This document shows, piece by piece, positions 4,403-62,511 of a stretch of 64,000 bases of DNA. Below the pieces are notes generated by a model, which was given only the letters and a program-made list of their open reading frames with translations, was not told the origin of the DNA and ran no database searches. Each line of letters begins with the position of its first letter. Position 1 is the first letter of the stretch. The position numbers and the translations under genes were made by a program. Origin of the DNA: a bacterium (GTDB lineage Bacteria; Chloroflexota; Dehalococcoidia; Tepidiformales; Tepidiformaceae); contig QEVS01000003.1 of assembly GCA_003577245.1 (NCBI GenBank), forward strand, positions 52,300-116,299, in the 5' to 3' direction.

Positions 4403-5239
4403 CTACCCTAGTTCCACGTTGTCGAGCAGCCGCGTGTGCCCGAACCGGACCACCAGCGAAAGCAGGGCTGGCCCCGTGATCTCCCCGTCAATCTCGTCAA
4501 GCTCCTGGTCGTCTGCCAGGCTCACGTATTCGATCTCCGCGCCGGGTACCGGGTAGATGAGGTCGTTCACAAGCGCGCGTAAGGCATCCGCGTCTCGCTC
4601 TCCCGCCTGGTAACGTTCGCGGGCTGAGCAGAGCGCCCGGTAGATGACCGGCGCGGCCGCTCTCTGCTCCGGCGAAAGGTAGACGTTGCGGCTGCTCATC
4701 GCCAGCCCGTCGGCTTCGCGCACAATCTCGCAGGGGACGATCTCCACCCCCATGTCGAGGTCCCTCACCATGCGCTGCACGACGCGGAGCTGCTGGGCGT
4801 CCTTCCGCCCGAAGTAGGCGCGGTCCGGCTCCACCGCGTTCAGCAGCTTGGCCACCACCGTCGTGACCCCCCGGAAGTGCCCCGGCCGGGCCGCCCCCTC
4901 GAGAGGCCGTGTCACGCGCTGCACATCCACCGCTGTCTGGTAGCCGTGCGGGTACATCTCGGCCGCGGACGGCAGGTAGACCGCATCGACGCCGCACTCG
5001 CGCAGCAGCTCCAGGTCGCGTACCTCATCGCGTGGGTACCGTTCGAAGTCCTCGCCCGGGCCGAACTGGGCCGGGTTCACGAAGATGCTGACCACAGTGC
5101 GGAAATTCTCCGCGCAGGAGCGGCGCACGAGCGCGAGGTGCCCTTCGTGGAGGTATCCCATGGTGGGCACGAATCCCGCCGAGCCGCCTTCGCCACGGCG
5201 CCATGCCCGCATCGCCCGGGGGGTAATCAGGACCTCCAC
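4403..5239 (-). CDS. panC: pantoate--beta-alanine ligase
   Basis: PTMGYLHEGHLALV HIGH-type motif. The N-terminus VEVLITPRAMRAW aligns with the canonical PanC start, so GTG 5239 is chosen inside ORF 4403..5365. Confidence 0.9.
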   Translation of the reverse strand: MEVLITPRAMRAWRRGEGGSAGFVPTMGYLHEGHLALVRRSCAENFRTVVSIFVNPAQFGPGEDFERYPRDEVRDLELLRECGVDAVYLPSAAEMYPHGYQTAVDVQRVTRPLEGAARPGHFRGVTTVVAKLLNAVEPDRAYFGRKDAQQLRVVQRMVRDLDMGVEIVPCEIVREADGLAMSSRNVYLSPEQRAAAPVIYRALCSARERYQAGERDADALRALVNDLIYPVPGAEIEYVSLADDQELDEIDGEITGPALLSLVVRFGHTRLLDNVELG

Positions 5240-5318
5240 GGCGCCATCATCGATAGTCCTTCGCGTTTTGTCGATCCTGCCCTGGGGCGCACCCGGACCG
5301 CGGCGGCCTGTCCGCCTG

Positions 5319-6161
5319 CTACCGGGTTTGCGCCAGCTCCGCCAGCGTTGCCTCTTCCATCTCAAAGCTGTTCGCAGCGGTGGGGAAGGCGCCTGACTCG
5401 ACTTCGCCGATGTACTCGCGAACCGCGCCCCGGATCGTCTCGCCGAGGTTGGCGTAGCGCTTCGCGTGCTTCAGCGGCCGGCAGTCGTCGTATATCCCGA
5501 GCAGGTCGTGGAACACCTGCACCTGGCCGTCGCAGCCGGTACCCGCGCCGATGCCGATGGTGGGGATGCTTATGCGCTCGGTCACCATCTTCGCCAGCGG
5601 CGCCGGAATGGTTTCGAGCACGATGGCAAAGGCGCCGGCTTCCTCTAGCGCGCGCGCATCGTTTAGCAGCCGGGCGGCGGCCGCCGGCGTCCTTCCCTGC
5701 ACCCTGTGCCCACCGAACTGGTTCACCGACTGCGGCGTGAGGCCGAGATGCCCCATGACCGGGATGCCGCATTCCACCATGCGCCGCACAAGGGAGACTA
5801 CGTGCGTTCCCCCTTCGAGCTTCACTGCCGTGGCGCCGCCCTCCTGGAGCAAACGGCCCGCGTTTCGCATCGCCTCATCGGGGGAGGCCTGGTAGCTCAT
5901 GAACGGCATATCGCCCACGACAATGGCCCGGCTGGTGGCGCGAGCCACTGCCCGCGTGTGATACACCACGTCATCCATCGTCACCGGGACGGTGGACTCA
6001 TACCCCAGCACCACGCTCCCCAGCGAGTCGCCCACCAGGATGATGGGAACGCCGGCCTGCTCCACGAGGCGTGCCGATGGGTAGTCGTAGGCAGTGAGCA
6101 TGGCGAACCGCCGGCCCTCCGCCTTCCATTCCTTGAGCTTGTGGATTGAGATGCGGGACAT
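5319..6161 (-). CDS. panB: 3-methyl-2-oxobutanoate hydroxymethyltransferase
   Basis: [28 protein letters not shown] is a typical PanB N-terminus. Start at ATG 6161 (MSRISIHKL). Confidence 0.95.
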
Positions 6162-56140: not shown

Positions 56141-59100
56141 CTACCGGGGCAGGTCCGCAAGCCGGAGCGAGAGCACCTTCGAGACGCCGTCGCGACCCAT
56201 GGAAACTCCGTAAATGGAGTCGGCCGCCTCCACCGTGCGGCGGTTGTGGGTGATAACCAGGAACTGCGTCTTCTGTGCGAGCGCCTCCAGCGCCCCCGTG
56301 AAGCGGCCCACGTTGGCCTCATCGAGGGCGGCATCGACTTCGTCGAGCACGCAGAAAGGCGCCGGGTTCACCGATAGCAGGGCGAAGAGAAGGGCCACCG
56401 CCGTCAGCGACCGCTCACCGCCCGAGAGCATGTTCAGGCTGGCGATGCGCTTGCCCGGCGGCTGCGCTTCCATCTCGATTCCCGCTTCGGCCACGTTGTC
56501 GGGATTGGAGAGCGCGAGGCGGGCCTGCCCTCCGCCGAAGAACGCCGAGAAGTACTCGCCGAAGGCCTGGTTCACTTTCTCGTAGGTGGCGCCGAAACGG
56601 GTATGAATCTCCTCGTTCAGCTCCGTGATGACCTGGCGCAGCTGGATCTCGGCATCCTCGAGGTCGCGCATCTGCGAGGTGAGGAACTCGTAGCGCTCCT
56701 GGCTTTCGCGGAAGTCCTCGGGCGCTTCTTCGTTCACAGGCCCCAGCCGCCGAATCTGACGGCGGAGCTCTTCAATGCGCGAACGCGTTTCCTCCACGTC
56801 GATGATGGCGCCCCCCTGGATGGCCGATGCCCCGCTCTGCTGCCCTTCGAACATGGGCGCCGTCGCCATCGCCTCATCCAGAGACACGATCCGCCCCGTG
56901 TGGTCCGGGCCGAGGCCCTCACGCTCCATCTCGATGCGGAGGCTCTCGATATGGTCACTGGCGCGGGCAAGCTCGGCTTCGATGTCGAGGCGGCGGCGTT
57001 CCACCTGGAGCAGCGTCGCCTGAGCCTCCTGGTAGTCGTCCTGCACCTGGCGCTCATGGTTTTCGAGGCGGTGAAGCTCGTCACGGTCGGGCGCGGCGTC
57101 GTTGGCGCGCTGCCCCTGCTCCAGGCGAACGGTCTCCAGCTCGGCCGCGAGCTTGCGAAGCCGCTCGTCGATGGCGCCCGCCTCCAGCTCGAGGTTGCGC
57201 GCCTGCAGCCGGCGAGCGGATATCTGTCCCGCCAGCCGCTCGATGGCCTTCTCGTGCTGTTCGCGCATCGCTGCCAGGGTCTTGCGTTCCCCTTCGATGG
57301 TTGCGACCCGTGCGCTCGCTTCGCCGACCGCACTCAGAGCAGCCTCACGGCGGGCGGTGACGGCGCGAAGGTCGGTCTCGAGCTGAGCGATAGCCGTCCG
57401 GCGCTCCTCCCTGCGCGCGACTGCCTGGGTCATTGCCGTGGTTGACTGGGCGATGAGCCGCTGGCGACCTTCCGCCTCGCGGGCGATATCGGCTCGCCGG
57501 GCCTTGATGGCGTCCATCTCGCGCCGCAGCCGGTGCAGACGGTCCCGCTCTCGTTCGAGGTCGAGCCGCGCCGTGTCGAGCTGGCGCCTCACCGAGTCGT
57601 ACTGCGCGTCGGCCTCCTGCGACCGCTGTGCCAGCTGCTCGATGGCGCCCCTCGCGTCGCGCAGCCGCTGCGAGCTCACGGCCGCCCGGTCGCGCAGCTC
57701 CGCGATCTTCACCGGGAGCTCTTCCAGCTCCCGCTGGCGGGAGAACGTGCTCTCCTCGGCGCCTGAGGCCCCACCCGTCATCACGCCGGTGGGCTCGATG
57801 TACGTCCCGTCGAGCGTGACTACCGACCCCAGGGCGCGCCGGATCATGCGAAGCCCGGTCTGCGTGTCTTCAACGATGATCACGCGGCCCAGCAGCGTGT
57901 CGATGAGGGGCCGGAACTGGTTTTCGCAGCGGACAAGCTTGGCCGCGACGCCAACCACGCCGCGCTCTTTCTGCAGATTCAAGGGATAGACGTGGCGCAC
58001 CGAATCCAGCGCCAGGAACTGCGCCCGCCCGTGCCGTCTCCGCCGGAGCAGCTCAATCGCCTGCAGCGCCTGCTCCTCGTTCTGGACGATGACCGCGTGG
58101 AGACGCTGCTCGAGTGCAGCATTGATCGCCGTCTCGAGGCCCGCGGGAACGCGGATCTGGCGCGACAGAAGGCCAAGCACACCGGGAACCTCGGACGGCT
58201 CGCCGAGGCTGCCGGGCTCAACCCCCTCGATGAGCGCCTGCCCCATGATGAGCACATTGCGCGTGCCTGCAGCCACGCCTTCCTGCTCGGCCTGGATGCG
58301 CCGGAGCGCATCGAGGCGGCCTTCAAGATGGTCAAGCTCGCGGAGATCTTGGTTGCCGGCCGCCTCATAAGAGCGCGTCTCTTCCTGCACGCGGAGCAGG
58401 CGCTCGCGGGCTTCTTCGGCGCCGCGGCGGGCGGTGCTGAGCTCTCCCTCCGCCACGCCGAGCTGCTCCCGCAGCTGCAAGAAGCGGCGCCCGTACCCGA
58501 TGAGCTCCACCAGCGCCTGCTTGCGCCGGACACCCGACTGGTTGTACTCCCGGTCCAGCTCTTCGATGCGCCGCTCCGCGGCCTGGATATCTGCTTCCAT
58601 TGCGCCGGTCCGGCGCTCGTCGGCGTCGGCCGCGTCGCGCAGCTCCTGGAGCCGGCTACGCGTGGCGGAGTAGTCTCTTTCGGCCGCGTCGAGAGCTTCC
58701 CGCGCTTCACCGGCCTGCGCTTTCGCCTGCTCGATCTCGCCGCTCACCTCGAGCCCACGGCGGCCCTCATCGACGTCGGTGCTCGTGAGCGAGAGGCGTT
58801 CGGCCTCCATCGCGTCGATCTCGCGCTGGAGCTCGTCGCGCCGGGCGGCCGTCATGGCGTGGCGTTCGCGGTCCAGGGCGATCGCCTGCTCGGTCGTGCG
58901 GAGCCGCTGTTCGAGTTCGAGGTGACGTGTGTCCCGGCGTTGGATGGCCTCGCGGCGCTTGCGAATCTCATCGCCCAGCGCGCGCATCTGTTCGCGCAAC
59001 TGGCTCACGCGCTCGGCGGCTGCGGCGTCCTCGGCCGCGCGCTGGTCGAGCGCCGCTCGAGCCCGGACGAGGGCATTCTGAGCCTCGCTCCAGCGGTGTC

Positions 59101-59791
59101 CGCAGTAGGCGCGCAGCAAGTCGGCAAGCTCCGCCGAAAGGCGGGTGTGCTCGCTCGCGCGTTCGGCCTGGCGGCTGAGCTGGGCCAGCCGGGGCTCAAT
59201 CTCCGCCGTGAGCAACGTCACGCGGTCGATGTTCTCTCGCGTGGCCAGGAGACGGTCCTGCGCCTCCTTTATCTTCATGCGAAACCGCTTCACGTCCGCC
59301 GCTTCGTCCAGGAGTGTCCGGCGCTCGTCGGGGGACATGCTCAGCACTTCGTCGACCAGGCCCTGCCCCATGATGGCGTAGCTGTTCTGGCCCACATCGC
59401 CCTTCATGAGCAGGTCAACGACGTCGCGCAGGCGAACCCGCGAGCCGTTCAGCAGGTACTCGGACTCGCCGTTGCGATAGACGCGGCGTCCCACCTCCAC
59501 CTCGCCGAAGTCCAGGGGAAGCCAGCGGTCCTCGTTGTCGAGGGTGATGATGACTTCGGCCATGCCCACGGCGGCCCGGGCGCCGGTCCCCGAGAAGATG
59601 ACGTCTTCGGACTTCTTCGCGCGGAGGAGGCGGGTGCTCTGTTCGCCCAGCACCCAGCGGATGGCGTCGGAAACGTTGCTCTTGCCCGAGCCGTTGGGGC
59701 CGACGACGGCCGTGATGCCCGTCCCAAAGTCAAACGTGGTGCGGTTGGGGAAGCTCTTGAATCCCTGGATGGAGAGTCTCTTCAGGTACAC
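56141..59791 (-). CDS. smc: chromosome segregation protein SMC
   Basis: MYLKRLSIQGFKSF, GPNGSGKSN, long coiled coils, hinge, LSGGE and VLDEVDAALD. Confidence 0.95.
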   Translation of the reverse strand: MYLKRLSIQGFKSFPNRTTFDFGTGITAVVGPNGSGKSNVSDAIRWVLGEQSTRLLRAKKSEDVIFSGTGARAAVGMAEVIITLDNEDRWLPLDFGEVEVGRRVYRNGESEYLLNGSRVRLRDVVDLLMKGDVGQNSYAIMGQGLVDEVLSMSPDERRTLLDEAADVKRFRMKIKEAQDRLLATRENIDRVTLLTAEIEPRLAQLSRQAERASEHTRLSAELADLLRAYCGHRWSEAQNALVRARAALDQRAAEDAAAAERVSQLREQMRALGDEIRKRREAIQRRDTRHLELEQRLRTTEQAIALDRERHAMTAARRDELQREIDAMEAERLSLTSTDVDEGRRGLEVSGEIEQAKAQAGEAREALDAAERDYSATRSRLQELRDAADADERRTGAMEADIQAAERRIEELDREYNQSGVRRKQALVELIGYGRRFLQLREQLGVAEGELSTARRGAEEARERLLRVQEETRSYEAAGNQDLRELDHLEGRLDALRRIQAEQEGVAAGTRNVLIMGQALIEGVEPGSLGEPSEVPGVLGLLSRQIRVPAGLETAINAALEQRLHAVIVQNEEQALQAIELLRRRRHGRAQFLALDSVRHVYPLNLQKERGVVGVAAKLVRCENQFRPLIDTLLGRVIIVEDTQTGLRMIRRALGSVVTLDGTYIEPTGVMTGGASGAEESTFSRQRELEELPVKIAELRDRAAVSSQRLRDARGAIEQLAQRSQEADAQYDSVRRQLDTARLDLERERDRLHRLRREMDAIKARRADIAREAEGRQRLIAQSTTAMTQAVARREERRTAIAQLETDLRAVTARREAALSAVGEASARVATIEGERKTLAAMREQHEKAIERLAGQISARRLQARNLELEAGAIDERLRKLAAELETVRLEQGQRANDAAPDRDELHRLENHERQVQDDYQEAQATLLQVERRRLDIEAELARASDHIESLRIEMEREGLGPDHTGRIVSLDEAMATAPMFEGQQSGASAIQGGAIIDVEETRSRIEELRRQIRRLGPVNEEAPEDFRESQERYEFLTSQMRDLEDAEIQLRQVITELNEEIHTRFGATYEKVNQAFGEYFSAFFGGGQARLALSNPDNVAEAGIEMEAQPPGKRIASLNMLSGGERSLTAVALLFALLSVNPAPFCVLDEVDAALDEANVGRFTGALEALAQKTQFLVITHNRRTVEAADSIYGVSMGRDGVSKVLSLRLADLPR

Positions 59792-59793
59792 CG

Positions 59794-60522
59794 CTACGCC
59801 TCCTCCCCCGAAAGCCGCGCCACCGCTTCGCGGGCGGCCTCTTGCTGGGCATCGCGTTTGCTGGGGCCGCTGCCCCGGCCGAGAGTCGTGCCTCCGATGC
59901 GGACCTCGACGGTGAACCTGCGGCCTTGACCGGCGGCCTCCTCGTCAACCGTCACATAATCCGGCGGTTCGTGCCAGCGCGCCTGGACCATGTGTTGCAG
60001 GCTCGATTTCGGGTCAAGGCTGGCCCCCTCGCGGCGGACCTGGTCAAGCTCGGGGGCAAGCATGCGCAGGATGAACGAGCGAGCCGCCCTGTACCCCTGG
60101 TCGCGGTACACCGCCCCGATAATGGCTTCGAAGACGCCGGCCAGGTTCCGTTCGCGCATGCGCCCGCCCGCTGCCTCTTCGCCGCGGCCGAGGACGATAT
60201 GGTCGCCTATGTCCAGCCGGGCCGCCGCCCGGGCCAACGCCGACCCTCTCACAATCTCGGCACGCATCCGTGTCAGGTCGCCCTCGCCTGCGGCGGGGAA
60301 CAGGCGAAAGAGCTCGTGTCCGACAACCATTCCCAGCACTGCGTCGCCAAGGAACTCCAACCGCTCATTTGATTCGGCATCAGCCCCGGACTCGTTCAGA
60401 AACGAAGCGTGCGTGAGGGCCTGTTCCAGGAGAGCGCCGGGCAACGGCCTTCCACCCAGCCGTTGAATGAGGTCATCGAGTGCAGGCGGCGGGGCCAGTG
60501 GCACTGAACCTCCCTGGCGCAC
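59794..60522 (-). CDS. rnc: ribonuclease III
   Basis: ERLEFLGDAVLGMVV signature and a C-terminal dsRBD. The stop is 2 nt before the smc GTG. Confidence 0.9.
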   Translation of the reverse strand: MRQGGSVPLAPPPALDDLIQRLGGRPLPGALLEQALTHASFLNESGADAESNERLEFLGDAVLGMVVGHELFRLFPAAGEGDLTRMRAEIVRGSALARAAARLDIGDHIVLGRGEEAAGGRMRERNLAGVFEAIIGAVYRDQGYRAARSFILRMLAPELDQVRREGASLDPKSSLQHMVQARWHEPPDYVTVDEEAAGQGRRFTVEVRIGGTTLGRGSGPSKRDAQQEAAREAVARLSGEEA

Positions 60523-60628
60523 GGCCCTGGGTCCGAAGAAACAGGGAAATGCTAACTTTGCATGATCATATCGACCATTCGGGCCGTGTCAAGGATACGG
60601 TAGAATCGAAGCGAAGCCCGCCAACACT

Positions 60629-61006
60629 ATGACAAGCGCGATAATTTCATGTTCGGTCTGCCTCCTCGAGCTCGAAGAGCATATGGTGGCGCTTTGCAAC
60701 GCTTGCGGGCAGGCCTATCACCTCAATCAGCGCAACGACCGGCCCGGCACGGACTGCGGCGAGGTGTGGGTCAACGAAGAGCACCTCGCACTCGAGTTTG
60801 CCTGCAACACCTGCCTGCATCCGCCCGTGGAAGAGACGCTCTCGGCCGTCCTGGATACTGCGGAAGCGGCCGCCCTCGCCGGGCTCTCCGAGGCCGCTCT
60901 GCAGGCCGCCGCCGATGCCGGGCTTGTCCGCAGCCGGCGAACGTCGAGCGGCATCTACCTGTTTGAGCGCGGCGACGTGATTGCGTTCGCCCGGGGGCGG
61001 CCGTGA
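60629..61006 (+). CDS. PHD-like C4HC3 zinc-finger + excisionase-type HTH protein
   Basis: C8-x2-C11-x11-C23-x2-C26-x4-H31-x11-C43-x15-C59-x2-C62, then LDTAEAAALAGLSEAALQ...IYLFERGDV (HTH_17-like). Confidence 0.6.
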   Translation: MTSAIISCSVCLLELEEHMVALCNACGQAYHLNQRNDRPGTDCGEVWVNEEHLALEFACNTCLHPPVEETLSAVLDTAEAAALAGLSEAALQAAADAGLVRSRRTSSGIYLFERGDVIAFARGRP

Positions 61007-61233
61007 GTGCCGGGCTGTGTTGCGAATGCAAGGGGCCCGCGAGCGGACGCAGCATGCTCATCTGTGCCTGCTGCCGGGGCCGGTTCCACTATCCCGATGA
61101 GCGCGTGAAGGAGGCGGGCCGGCGCTGCGGCGTGCACGAGATCGGCTTTCGCGACATCCTTGGTCGAGACGTTGTGCCGCTCTGCCTTCGCTGCGACATG
61201 GCATTCAGGCTCGAGAACGGGATTCCCGCATGA
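61003..61233 (+). CDS. 76-aa stand-alone paralog of the same zinc-finger domain
   Basis: C6-x2-C9-x11-C21-x2-C24-x4-H29-x12-C42-x18-C61-x2-C64. GTGA overlap with the upstream gene. Confidence 0.55.
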   Translation: MSAGLCCECKGPASGRSMLICACCRGRFHYPDERVKEAGRRCGVHEIGFRDILGRDVVPLCLRCDMAFRLENGIPA

Positions 61234-61568
61234 CCTCCACACGCAAGCGTTCCCGCCGCGACCGTGCCGCGGCCCCTCCCGCCCCCGCCTCGCAGGGGGT
61301 GGCCCCGGTCCAGGCCGGCCGTGCCCTCAAGCCGCCGCCGGAATGGCGCTGGCGCACCTTCCCCGTCTACTTCGCCTTTTCGCTGGCGCTCTTCGTGGGC
61401 GTGTACGTGGGGCTGCTCGCTGCGGCGGCGAATGATGCGGGCAACGGGAGCATTTCGCTCCTCCTGGCCGGGATACCCGCGGTCATGCTGGGGCTGGGGC
61501 TCTCCCGCATCGTGGTGCGTTTCATGATGACGCGCGGGGTCATTCGCCCGCGGGCAAAACGCAAGTAG
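61230..61568 (+). CDS. 112-aa two-TM membrane protein with basic termini
   Basis: ATGA overlap with the upstream gene. Two hydrophobic helices (FPVYFAFSLALFVGVYVGLLAAA; ISLLLAGIPAVMLGLGL). Confidence 0.55.
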   Translation: MTSTRKRSRRDRAAAPPAPASQGVAPVQAGRALKPPPEWRWRTFPVYFAFSLALFVGVYVGLLAAAANDAGNGSISLLLAGIPAVMLGLGLSRIVVRFMMTRGVIRPRAKRK

Positions 61569-61571
61569 CCG

Positions 61572-62351
61572 TTAGCAGTAGCGCTTCAAGACCCGCCCGT
61601 GAGGCAGCGTGAAGTCGTACCGTGTGTAAACGGCGCCGGTGATTCGCCCAACCGGCAGGCAGTGCCACGGGTCCAGCGCCGATGCCGTGTCGAAGCTCAG
61701 GGTCCCGGTTCCCGCCCACGCCTCGTGCGTCACGCTCTCCATGTTCGATACCTCAATGAGCTCCGCCAGGGCGGGAGGGGCTCCCTCCCCGGCCGCGGGG
61801 ATGACGCGCAACGACAGGCTGCCCCCTCCACCGTCGCCGGAAGGCAATGGCAATGGCCGTTCCATGCGCATGGCAGCAGTGATCAGACGTACACCGCGGG
61901 GCCGCTCCAGGGTCCCGCGCAGGAACTCCGCCTCCTGCTCGATCTCAATGTGTGCCATCTTCTTCGGGTAGCCCCATACCTCCCGTCCGGCGACAAGCGG
62001 CGGGACCTCGGTCACGGCAATGTGCGCGATGTAGAAGCGCGGTGCACCCTGCCAGAGGCACTCGAGGCCCAGTATCGCTTCGTTGTAGGGGCCAAAAGTC
62101 GAAAACGGGTAGCGCACCAGCATCAGCCGCGCCATGGCAGGCAGGGGCAGTTCGAGCCCTTCGGGAAGCAGCGCGGCCGCCGCCCCCGCGTCTGTTTCGT
62201 AGGCTATTGTCATTGCCCGGGCGTCGCGGAAGTAGAACGGCGGCTCCTGGTAGTAGGGCGCATCGACCGGCATTGAGCGGCGGATGCGCCCGGGCCCAAG
62301 CTGGCCGGGCAGCGTTCGTACAGCGGGTTGCGTGACTGTTTCGGCTGTCAT
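61572..62351 (-). CDS. acetoacetate decarboxylase (ADC) family protein
   Basis: YYQEPPFYFRDARAMTIAYETD...GREVWGYPKK is a typical ADC-family core. Start at ATG 62351. Confidence 0.8.
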   Translation of the reverse strand: MTAETVTQPAVRTLPGQLGPGRIRRSMPVDAPYYQEPPFYFRDARAMTIAYETDAGAAAALLPEGLELPLPAMARLMLVRYPFSTFGPYNEAILGLECLWQGAPRFYIAHIAVTEVPPLVAGREVWGYPKKMAHIEIEQEAEFLRGTLERPRGVRLITAAMRMERPLPLPSGDGGGGSLSLRVIPAAGEGAPPALAELIEVSNMESVTHEAWAGTGTLSFDTASALDPWHCLPVGRITGAVYTRYDFTLPHGRVLKRYC

Positions 62352-62459
62352 TCGTGCGCCTCCTGCTCGCCCGGCCAGTCCTGCTTCGCGTGTCAGGCCG
62401 CAGGCCGGGCGGCCTGACTGTAATCCCCTTGCCAGGGGCTGGCAATCACCCGTGGGGGG

Positions 62460-62483
62460 CTTAGTGTAAGGTTGACACGAAGT
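62460..62483. promoter_or_regulatory. imperfect palindromic operator A upstream of nadA (overlaps a TTGACA -35)
   Basis: CTTAGTGTA-AGGTT-GACACGAAGT has 2 arm mismatches relative to site B. TTGACA at 62472..62477 is followed by 17 nt and then CATGCT. Confidence 0.4.
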
Positions 62484-62511
62484 CATCCGTCAGGCATGCT
62501 GAATCTGCCTG

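Follow-up and report, generated by a model that had tools for sequence, protein, structure and literature searches.

Zinc fingers of the PHD, FYVE and rabphilin types are modules which bind peptides, proteins or lipids. Fingers of this cross-braced PHD/FYVE type are typically eukaryotic, and the bacterial examples are rare and mostly unstudied. The present analysis concerns an operon of three genes, the products of which are called P1, P2 and P3, in a stretch of 64,000 nucleotides (the window) from a member of the Tepidiformaceae in the phylum Chloroflexota (assembly GCA_003577245.1, contig QEVS01000003.1, positions 52,300 to 116,299 of the forward strand). P1 and P2 carry a zinc finger which is a distant relative of the PHD and FYVE fingers and belongs to an undescribed family, predicted to bind two zinc ions, which is found across the Chloroflexota. 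In P1 the finger is joined to a winged helix-turn-helix (HTH) domain resembling those of BldC, of the excisionase Xis and of the N-terminal domain of RacA. RacA tethers DNA to a membrane-associated partner, and this is the kind of role that we propose for P1. The third protein, P3, is likened in its architecture only to the actinobacterial CrgA, one of the small polybasic proteins with two transmembrane helices in Gram-positive lineages. Bacterial two-zinc treble-clef fingers are found among the prokaryotic RING-like or binuclear treble-clef fingers (Prok-RING_1, PF14446) catalogued by Burroughs, Iyer and Aravind (2011; cited from PMC4506424).

The finger of P1 has the ligand spacing C8-x2-C11-x11-C23-x2-C26-x4-H31-x11-C43-x15-C59-x2-C62 and that of P2 the spacing C6-x2-C9-x11-C21-x2-C24-x4-H29-x12-C42-x18-C61-x2-C64. 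The initial annotation of the sequence had pointed to this common C4HC3 pattern, and the eight ligands are invariant in the 62 P1-type and 63 P2-type sequences which were aligned. It had also listed local residues shared by the two proteins. The glycine following the sixth ligand (CG) is indeed invariant in both finger families, but the motif M-[VL]-x-[LI]-C is one residue out of register in P2 (S-M-L-I-C21) and its methionine is conserved in neither family. The P1 family has in addition an invariant HLNQR and the invariant residues D42 and G44 in a DCG motif. That the two fingers are paralogous, as proposed at the same time, is borne out by profile comparison: hhalign aligns the P1 family with the P2 family over ligands 1-6 at 80% probability (E 1.4e-5), and the broad finger family described below with the P2 family at 95.4% (E 1.7e-8). 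The broad finger profile scores P1 at 84 bits, P2 at 17.7 bits and all 63 sequences of the P2 family at 24-32 bits.

The likeness to the PHD finger (PF00628) lies in the C4HC3 order of the ligands, in the spacing of ligands 1-5 (C-x2-C-x11-C-x2-C-x4-H) and in the core hydrophobic-x-C-x2-C-x3-[FY]-H. This resemblance of the core, seen already at the outset, holds at the profile level. When the broad profile is compared to the sequences in the PDB it finds the PHD finger of WSTF with an E-value of 2.1e-4, over ligands 1-5 only, and dozens of other PHD fingers marginally; profiles built from Tepidiformales alone find PHD fingers at marginal E-values only. The Pfam model PF00628 gives P1 13.3 bits (E 0.087) and relatives 13.6-17.2 bits, all below the gathering threshold of 24 bits, and it does not match P2. 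Since the sixth ligand is located 11-12 residues after the histidine (H-x11-C in P1, H-x12-C in P2) and not two residues after it as in PHD (H-x2-C), the finger is not a canonical PHD finger and falls in no curated family. It differs from the PHD and FYVE fingers also in being bacterial, confined so far to the Chloroflexota, where there are no histones to read. From FYVE it differs in that the finger of P1 is acidic and lacks the R(R/K)HHCR motif; neither this motif nor WxxD is found in P1, P2 or the family consensus. The closest bacterial model, Prok-RING_1, describes a two-zinc treble-clef finger as well, and its matches all stay below the threshold of 29.1 bits: 14.2 bits (E 0.042) for P1 and 22.0 bits for the best relative, with an E-value of 1.6e-4 for P0171. 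The genes surrounding the finger are also different from those of the Prok-RING proteins. There are no ubiquitin-like, E1/E2-like or JAB genes; the finger is instead accompanied by rnc and smc, a nucleotidyltransferase gene and a membrane hairpin. NCBIfam has no match for the finger proteins and Pfam none for P2, and a literature search for PHD fingers in Chloroflexi found nothing. The initial annotation had recognized no described family, and neither the fingers nor P3 fall under a curated model of Pfam or NCBIfam.

Structure models were made with AlphaFold2 for P1 and P2 as single, zinc-free chains. The P1 model has a predicted local distance difference test score (pLDDT) of 90.2; in it residues 20-63 form two beta-hairpins with a short helix, after which comes the winged HTH (74-122). 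The P2 model (pLDDT 88.9; predicted template modelling score, pTM, 0.76) has the same order of strands and a longer C-terminal helix. Two beta-hairpins followed by a C-terminal helix are also what characterizes the FYVE/PHD cross-brace superfamily. A Foldseek search with the P2 model gave as its best matches the rabphilin-3A zinc finger and FYVE domains, at TM-scores of 0.55-0.59 and a root-mean-square deviation (rmsd) of about 3 A, with PHD fingers ranking lower and all E-values being 0.12 or worse; the viral structure library searched with P2 yielded nothing useful. In the models ligands 3 and 4 are found in the knuckle of a hairpin, and ligands 7 and 8 at the end of a strand and the start of the helix. 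The secondary structure and the fold matches fit a cross-braced binuclear treble clef in which ligands 1, 2, 5 and 6 would hold one zinc ion and ligands 3, 4, 7 and 8 the other. The net charge of the P1 finger is -9 (family median -6, range -14 to 0) and that of P2 is +3 (family median +1).

The extent of the finger family was determined by searching a profile of the P1 finger alone against 1.84 billion representative proteins (clusters at 50% identity). The search returned 201 representatives at E ≤ 1e-3, of which 85 reached E ≤ 1e-10. All eight ligands are kept in 125 of the 127 full-length domains, most commonly with the spacing 11/11/15 as in P1, and P1 fits the family pattern C-x2-C-x10-13-C-x2-C-x4-H-x10-14-(D/N/E)-C-G-x14-19-C-x2-C. 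The gap between ligands 5 and 6 is 10-14 residues in all but one of the representatives. The family has motifs of its own (HLNQR, DCG-x-VW and LALEF), and the few members which come with a source name are labelled Chloroflexota or Chloroflexi. Most of the proteins have no HTH domain, and four architectures are seen. The first is the stand-alone finger of 65-90 residues. In the second a low-complexity linker leads from the finger to a conserved basic peptide at the C-terminus (RRYRRID, ARDIVRRKRR or RRYARR...). The third comprises HTH-bearing forms like P1. In the fourth, represented by P0251 and P0266, one chain holds the finger, a Pro/Ala linker, an arginine-rich stretch, two transmembrane helices and a basic tail.

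The positions of the genes and their features are collected in Table 1. The three open reading frames are chained as had been described: the start codon of P2 lies on the stop codon of P1 in a GTGA overlap, that of P3 on the stop codon of P2 in an ATGA overlap, and the operon is divergent from rnc. The possibility that these are spurious reading frames in GC-rich DNA was considered and is ruled out by their conservation, the translational coupling and the ratios of nonsynonymous to synonymous substitutions (dN/dS). In pairwise comparisons with six relatives dN/dS is 0.11-0.26 for P1, 0.12-0.22 for P2 and 0.14-0.48 for P3, showing that all three genes are under purifying selection. The genes form a genuine, translationally coupled chromosomal operon in the Tepidiformales.

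Table 1. Features of the P1-P2-P3 operon and its neighbours (positions in the window).
Feature	Position	Strand	Description
smc	56141-59791	-	behind rnc
rnc (RNase III)	59794-60522	-	divergent from P1; 106 bp spacer
TGCTAA box	60550..60555	+	conserved; reads TTAGCA on the strand of rnc, shortly after the -10 box of that gene
rnc-smc promoter	60565..60592	-	near-consensus sigma-70-type, TTGACA-16-TATGAT; 11/12 in scan, 0.1 expected by chance
Candidate P1 -10 box	60601..60606	+	TAGAAT; TAnnnT conserved in upstream alignment; 22 nt before the ATG
P1 gene	60629..61006	+	125 residues, ATG start; N-terminal C4HC3 finger (predicted two-zinc) and C-terminal winged HTH
P1 finger domain	60629..60838	+	residues 1-70; ligands C8, C11, C23, C26, H31, C43, C59, C62
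P1 MerR-like winged HTH	60848..61003	+	residues 74-125; BldC/excisionase type
P2 gene	61003..61233	+	76 residues, GTG start; stand-alone divergent finger paralogue
P3 gene	61230..61568	+	112 residues, ATG start; membrane protein, hairpin of two transmembrane helices
P3 predicted transmembrane helix 1	61356..61430	+	residues ~43-67 (hydrophobic stretch ~43-68); Kyte-Doolittle 19-residue windows >1.6 start at residues 43-52
P3 predicted transmembrane helix 2	61449..61529	+	residues ~74-100 (hydrophobic stretch ~73-100); Kyte-Doolittle 19-residue windows >1.6 start at residues 73-82
Acetoacetate-decarboxylase-family (ADC) gene	61572-62486	-	Pfam ADC, E 6e-55

When one genome per species was scanned a relative of P1 was found in 113 genomes, and 80 loci (numbered L001-L080) were taken for an analysis of synteny by tblastn of the window proteins. 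All 80 are Tepidiformales-like, and among them is Tepidiforma flava (L048), a cultured organism with a complete genome. At the protein level there are 80 homologue clusters for P1 and 75 for P2; with a single exception, a P2 cluster labelled Hyphomicrobiales, those with names belong to the Chloroflexota (Dehalococcoidia, Tepidiformaceae or 'Thermoflexaceae'). P1 is present in all of the loci, rnc is found upstream and divergent in 75 and smc in 74. P3 follows directly downstream of P1 or P2 in 76 loci, the contigs of the other four ending too early, and P2 is found in only 46, all in the clade nearest to the window. Four-bp overlaps predominate at the P1-P2 and P2-P3 junctions, and at the P1-P3 junction where P2 is absent. 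In L033 the three genes are found together, away from rnc. Because P3 follows in 76 of the 80 loci and P2 is present in only 46, the conserved unit is P1 and P3, with P2 as a later insertion. The initial annotation was right in describing a coupled and real unit, but the three genes which it saw as one operon are a conserved pair with an added P2.

Two cases deserve separate mention. In L044 (a Thermoflexaceae metagenome-assembled genome, MAG) about 1 kb of extra DNA at positions 4967-6000 of the locus, with one reading frame of 231 residues and otherwise of unclear coding content, separates the promoter region of rnc from P1 and splits the spacer which is otherwise constant at 100 bp. The contigs L057 and L070, both from the MAG DATCGT01 (SMAG_U7814), carry two different copies of P1; either the bin is a mixture of strains or the gene is truly duplicated.

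P3 is the constant partner of P1, and its hydropathy and charges agree with the earlier description of a protein with two transmembrane helices and Arg/Lys-rich ends. The N-terminal tail is rich in arginines, with a charge of +7 in the first 40 residues, and the basic C-terminal tail has +7 in the last 16. The W-x-W-R-T-F-P-V motif located before the first helix has the invariant residues W39, W41, T43, P45 and V46. Both ends are predicted, from the positive-inside rule, to be cytoplasmic. The loop between the hydrophobic segments, of about 5-10 residues, is too short to hold an external sensor domain, and the idea of a membrane signalling system, which had been put forward with the first description, finds no support. 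Pfam and NCBIfam have no family match for P3. With CrgA and with PRSAF1, a small membrane protein associated with the mycobacterial respiratory supercomplex, the protein shares a length of about 100 residues, a basic cytoplasmic N-terminal tail and two transmembrane helices. PRSAF1 (6adq_D) was also the sole match of the P3 profile among the PDB sequences, over residues 1-80. With an E-value of 0.12 this match is at chance level and is probably compositional.

The C-terminal domain of P1 was from the beginning suspected to be an HTH of the excisionase/MerR type, and the matches found with sequence and structure agree. Pfam HTH_17 (PF12728, the excisionase family) scores P1 at 21.1 bits (E 3.9e-4), below its gathering threshold of 27 bits, and is precomputed on 14 of the 80 P1 homologue clusters. 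In the model the pLDDT is 92-96 in the core of the domain (residues 81-120) and 74-87 at its edges. Foldseek found DNA-bound BldC (6ama and 6amk) as the best matches for the C-terminal 50 residues, at TM-scores of 0.75-0.83 (against the target), an rmsd of 1.5-2.3 A and 28-29% identity, followed by SoxR, NmlR, CarH, RacA, GlnR/TnrA and the RdfS excisionase. The matched SoxR, CarH and RacA are bound to DNA as well, while the RdfS entry contains no DNA. The Foldseek probabilities were 1.00 for BldC, SoxR, NmlR, CarH, RacA and GlnR, with rmsd 1.5-2.9 A over 48-56 columns. The matches to SoxR, CueR and others span only their N-terminal 46-51 residues, and the chain of P1 stops at residue 125, where the last helix of the winged HTH has just ended. 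The antiparallel coiled-coil dimerization helix and the effector domain of the MerR proteins are missing from P1, as they are from BldC, Xis and the N-terminal domain of RacA. The models describe a minimal MerR-like winged HTH, which is predicted to be of a DNA-binding type. It differs from BldC and the excisionases in being located at the C-terminus of a zinc-finger protein.

The excisionase likeness could be taken to mean that P1 belongs to a mobile element or a defence system, as an excisionase, a recombination directionality factor (RDF) or a defence HTH protein with P2 and P3 as accessories. The HTH_17 and RdfS matches would agree with this, as would the match of the HTH to mad1 in PADLOC (6.3e-6) and to the RDF/excisionase families in PHROGs (0.006-0.075). 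Only the generic HTH part is matched, the finger and P3 match nothing in either collection, and in a tblastn search none of the 50,697 phage and 72,556 plasmid records contained a homologue of P1. In contrast to what is expected of an excisionase, no integrase or att context, and no other mobile-element gene, was noticed in the flanks inspected (the window, L033 and L044; there was no systematic screen of the flanks). The operon has a fixed chromosomal place beside rnc-smc in 75 of the 80 species-level genomes, and we regard a mobile-element or defence role of P1 as very improbable.

Outside the Tepidiformales the finger has no HTH, and these fingers bear on the history of the operon. The gene context of eight such members was examined on their contigs (L081, L083, L084, L085, L086, L088, L089 and L091). 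In all eight the finger gene directly follows a gene of the PF01743 family (tRNA nucleotidyltransferase/poly(A) polymerase). The overlap between the two genes measures 4 bp in at least three of the loci (L083, L086 and L088), 8 bp in L091 and 20 bp in L081, and in seven of the eight the pair is divergent from rnc(-smc). A P3-like gene, the product of which has two hydrophobic helices between an arginine-rich N-terminus and a basic C-terminus, is located after the finger gene in four loci (L083, L084, L086 and L088); a fifth has an uncharacterised reading frame of 164 residues at this place, and in P0266 the membrane part is fused to the finger. Genes for a DinG-like RNase_T-helicase and for PHP_C are also found repeatedly downstream, in several of the loci. 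These arrangements make it likely that the ancestral order was rnc-smc, divergent from a nucleotidyltransferase gene, the finger and a membrane hairpin. In the Tepidiformales the enzyme gene then likely left the locus and the finger acquired a BldC-type HTH, after which one subclade duplicated the finger to give P2. As the module in the window is a lineage-specific form of a wider pair of finger and hairpin which lacks the HTH and is coupled to a nucleotidyltransferase gene, the partition-type or DNA-centred role which had been suggested for it cannot be the ancestral one.

Because the link to the nucleotidyltransferase is the most constant one outside the Tepidiformales, the main rival to the reading which we prefer is that the finger protein is an accessory factor of RNA metabolism. 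It would be a subunit, a regulator or a membrane-localizer of the PF01743 enzyme and/or of RNase III, and the Tepidiformales operon would be a remnant from which the enzyme gene has gone. The position directly behind the enzyme gene, often overlapping it, and the divergence from rnc speak for this, and so does the persistence of the rnc link in 75 of the 80 Tepidiformales loci; the conserved basic tails of the relatives (RRYRRID, ARDIVRRKRR) could bind RNA. On the other hand the finger domain itself is acidic, and the domain added to it in P1 is of a DNA-binding type. Purifying selection acts on the finger and P3 even though there is no PolyA_pol gene nearby, none being found in the 64-kb window or at a distance of up to 6 kb in the 80 Tepidiformales loci. 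The PF01743 enzymes beside the finger are below every NCBIfam equivalog cut-off, so that they are assigned neither as CCA-adding, A-adding nor poly(A) enzymes, and operon neighbours within one phylum may reflect common ancestry and not common function. We consider a role in RNA metabolism possible, and on the unlikely side.

The reading which we put forward, tentatively, sees in the finger a docking module which would place P1 at the membrane through P3, with P2 as a modulator. The finger would bind protein and not nucleic acid, and its target in P3 would most plausibly be a poly-arginine cytoplasmic tail or the W-x-W-R-T-F-P segment; binding to P3 would keep the finger protein at the membrane. 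In the Tepidiformales the winged HTH of BldC/excisionase type appears to have replaced the ancestral basic C-terminal tail of the finger protein, and for this reason the complex would hold a DNA-binding domain at the membrane. The complex of P1 and P3 could then be a membrane-sequestered regulator or a tether between DNA and membrane, and the nearest candidate for a DNA target is the fully overlapping pair of divergent promoters of rnc-smc and P1. P2, an extra finger of nearly neutral charge present in one subclade, might act as an adaptor or competitor which modulates assembly. Docking to P3 is indicated by the predicted fusion proteins P0251 and P0266, in which the finger and the membrane hairpin are physically linked, and by the separate P3-like genes behind the finger in the distant lineages L083, L084, L086 and L088. 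The acidic charge of the finger opposite the +7/+7 tails of P3, and its likeness to the PHD, FYVE and rabphilin fingers, point in the same direction.

Several observations weigh against docking to P3. Across the wider family it is the nucleotidyltransferase-family gene (8 of 8), and not P3 (about 6 of 8), that accompanies the finger most constantly, and this points to an ancestral role related to RNA. The P3 profile scores the distant or fused membrane segments, a set of six sequences, at only 8-19 bits, and the case for homologous membrane partners throughout the phylum is therefore based mostly on architecture and position. Finally, no operator for P1 was identified, and the conserved box in the intergenic region tracks rnc.

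A more far-reaching version of docking would let the acidic finger read P3 by its free N-terminal tail, which is rich in arginines (M-S-x-x-R-R-R-R-R...), much as a eukaryotic PHD finger reads the basic N-terminal tail of histone H3 and, together with the HTH, pin the DNA to the membrane beside the SMC condensin genes. This is a long shot. If it were true, PHD-tail recognition would have a prokaryotic forerunner or analogue in this tail-reading complex, which would serve the organization of the nucleoid.

The promoters between rnc and P1 bear on whether P1 could act as a regulator at its own locus. Both hexamers of the rnc promoter are conserved across about 70 loci. The TAnnnT box is likely an element of the P1 promoter, judged from its conservation; as it is only 8 bp from the -35 box of rnc, the two promoters would be back to back and overlapping. 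The third conserved element, TGCTAA, has a single copy in each of 68 loci; the window as a whole likewise contains one copy, where 0.09 would be expected. In L044 it stays beside rnc, with P1 1 kb away, and in L033, where the operon is located elsewhere, it is missing; for these reasons the box belongs to rnc and not to P1. The composite TGCTAA-N7-T.ATCATA was considered as a P1 operator and is ruled out as P1-specific, being part of the promoter and leader of rnc. Nor do the lineages without an HTH contain it in their rnc intergenic regions.

These promoters are also relevant for the possibility that P1 is a soluble transcription factor sensing redox state or metal, in which a thiol switch in the zinc sites would control the HTH and P1 would regulate its own operon and/or rnc-smc, P3 being merely co-transcribed. 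Zinc-thiolate sites are known as redox sensors, for example in the zinc-containing anti-sigma factors. P1 has seven cysteines and one histidine as ligands beside an HTH of the MerR superfamily, and the overlap of the divergent promoters would suit such a regulator. Most members of the finger family, however, have no HTH to control, and there are fusions in which the finger is linked to the membrane hairpin. The fold matches structural, protein-binding fingers and not sensor sites, no operator for P1 was found, and the conserved intergenic box follows rnc. A sensor of this kind seems improbable to us; both this and the mobile or defence reading are less likely than docking to P3.

Some features of the region surrounding the operon should be recorded. 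On the rnc strand (60523-60592 in the window, and also in L001-L080) a conserved GCAAC-x-TTAGCA-(A/T)-TT is found near the predicted start of the rnc transcript and is followed by short inverted repeats. The repeats differ in sequence and stay complementary: CCCTG...CAGGG in the window, GTGGAT...ATCCAC in L008 and GGCCAC...GTGGCC in L014. They may form a hairpin in the rnc leader, possibly an autoregulatory site for RNase III. The predicted 5' leader of P1 (60613-60631) is about 15 nt long and has no recognizable Shine-Dalgarno sequence; rnc is preceded by GGAGG. At the other end the stop codon of P3 is only 3 bp from that of the convergent ADC gene, and no terminator-like hairpin was detected between the two. 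The ADC gene is found at this position in only 3 of the 80 related loci, and neither it nor NadA, the genes downstream of P3, is conserved among them. An Rfam scan of positions 59500-62500 gave no match.

The analysis defines a sizeable bacterial family of fingers, with at least 201 clusters at 50% identity, for which there is no curated model. Its members are now annotated only as 'hypothetical protein', and for this reason the finger domain, even should its role turn out to be modest, merits the definition of a family. The strict conservation of the ligands, the address next to rnc-smc and the nucleotidyltransferase gene, and the natural fusions to the membrane hairpin lead to specific predictions of interactions. 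Tepidiforma can be cultured and the complete genome of T. flava contains the operon, so that both genetics and localization experiments are feasible. Such experiments might uncover a new means by which a DNA-binding protein or, in other Chloroflexota, the partner of an RNA enzyme is brought to the membrane.

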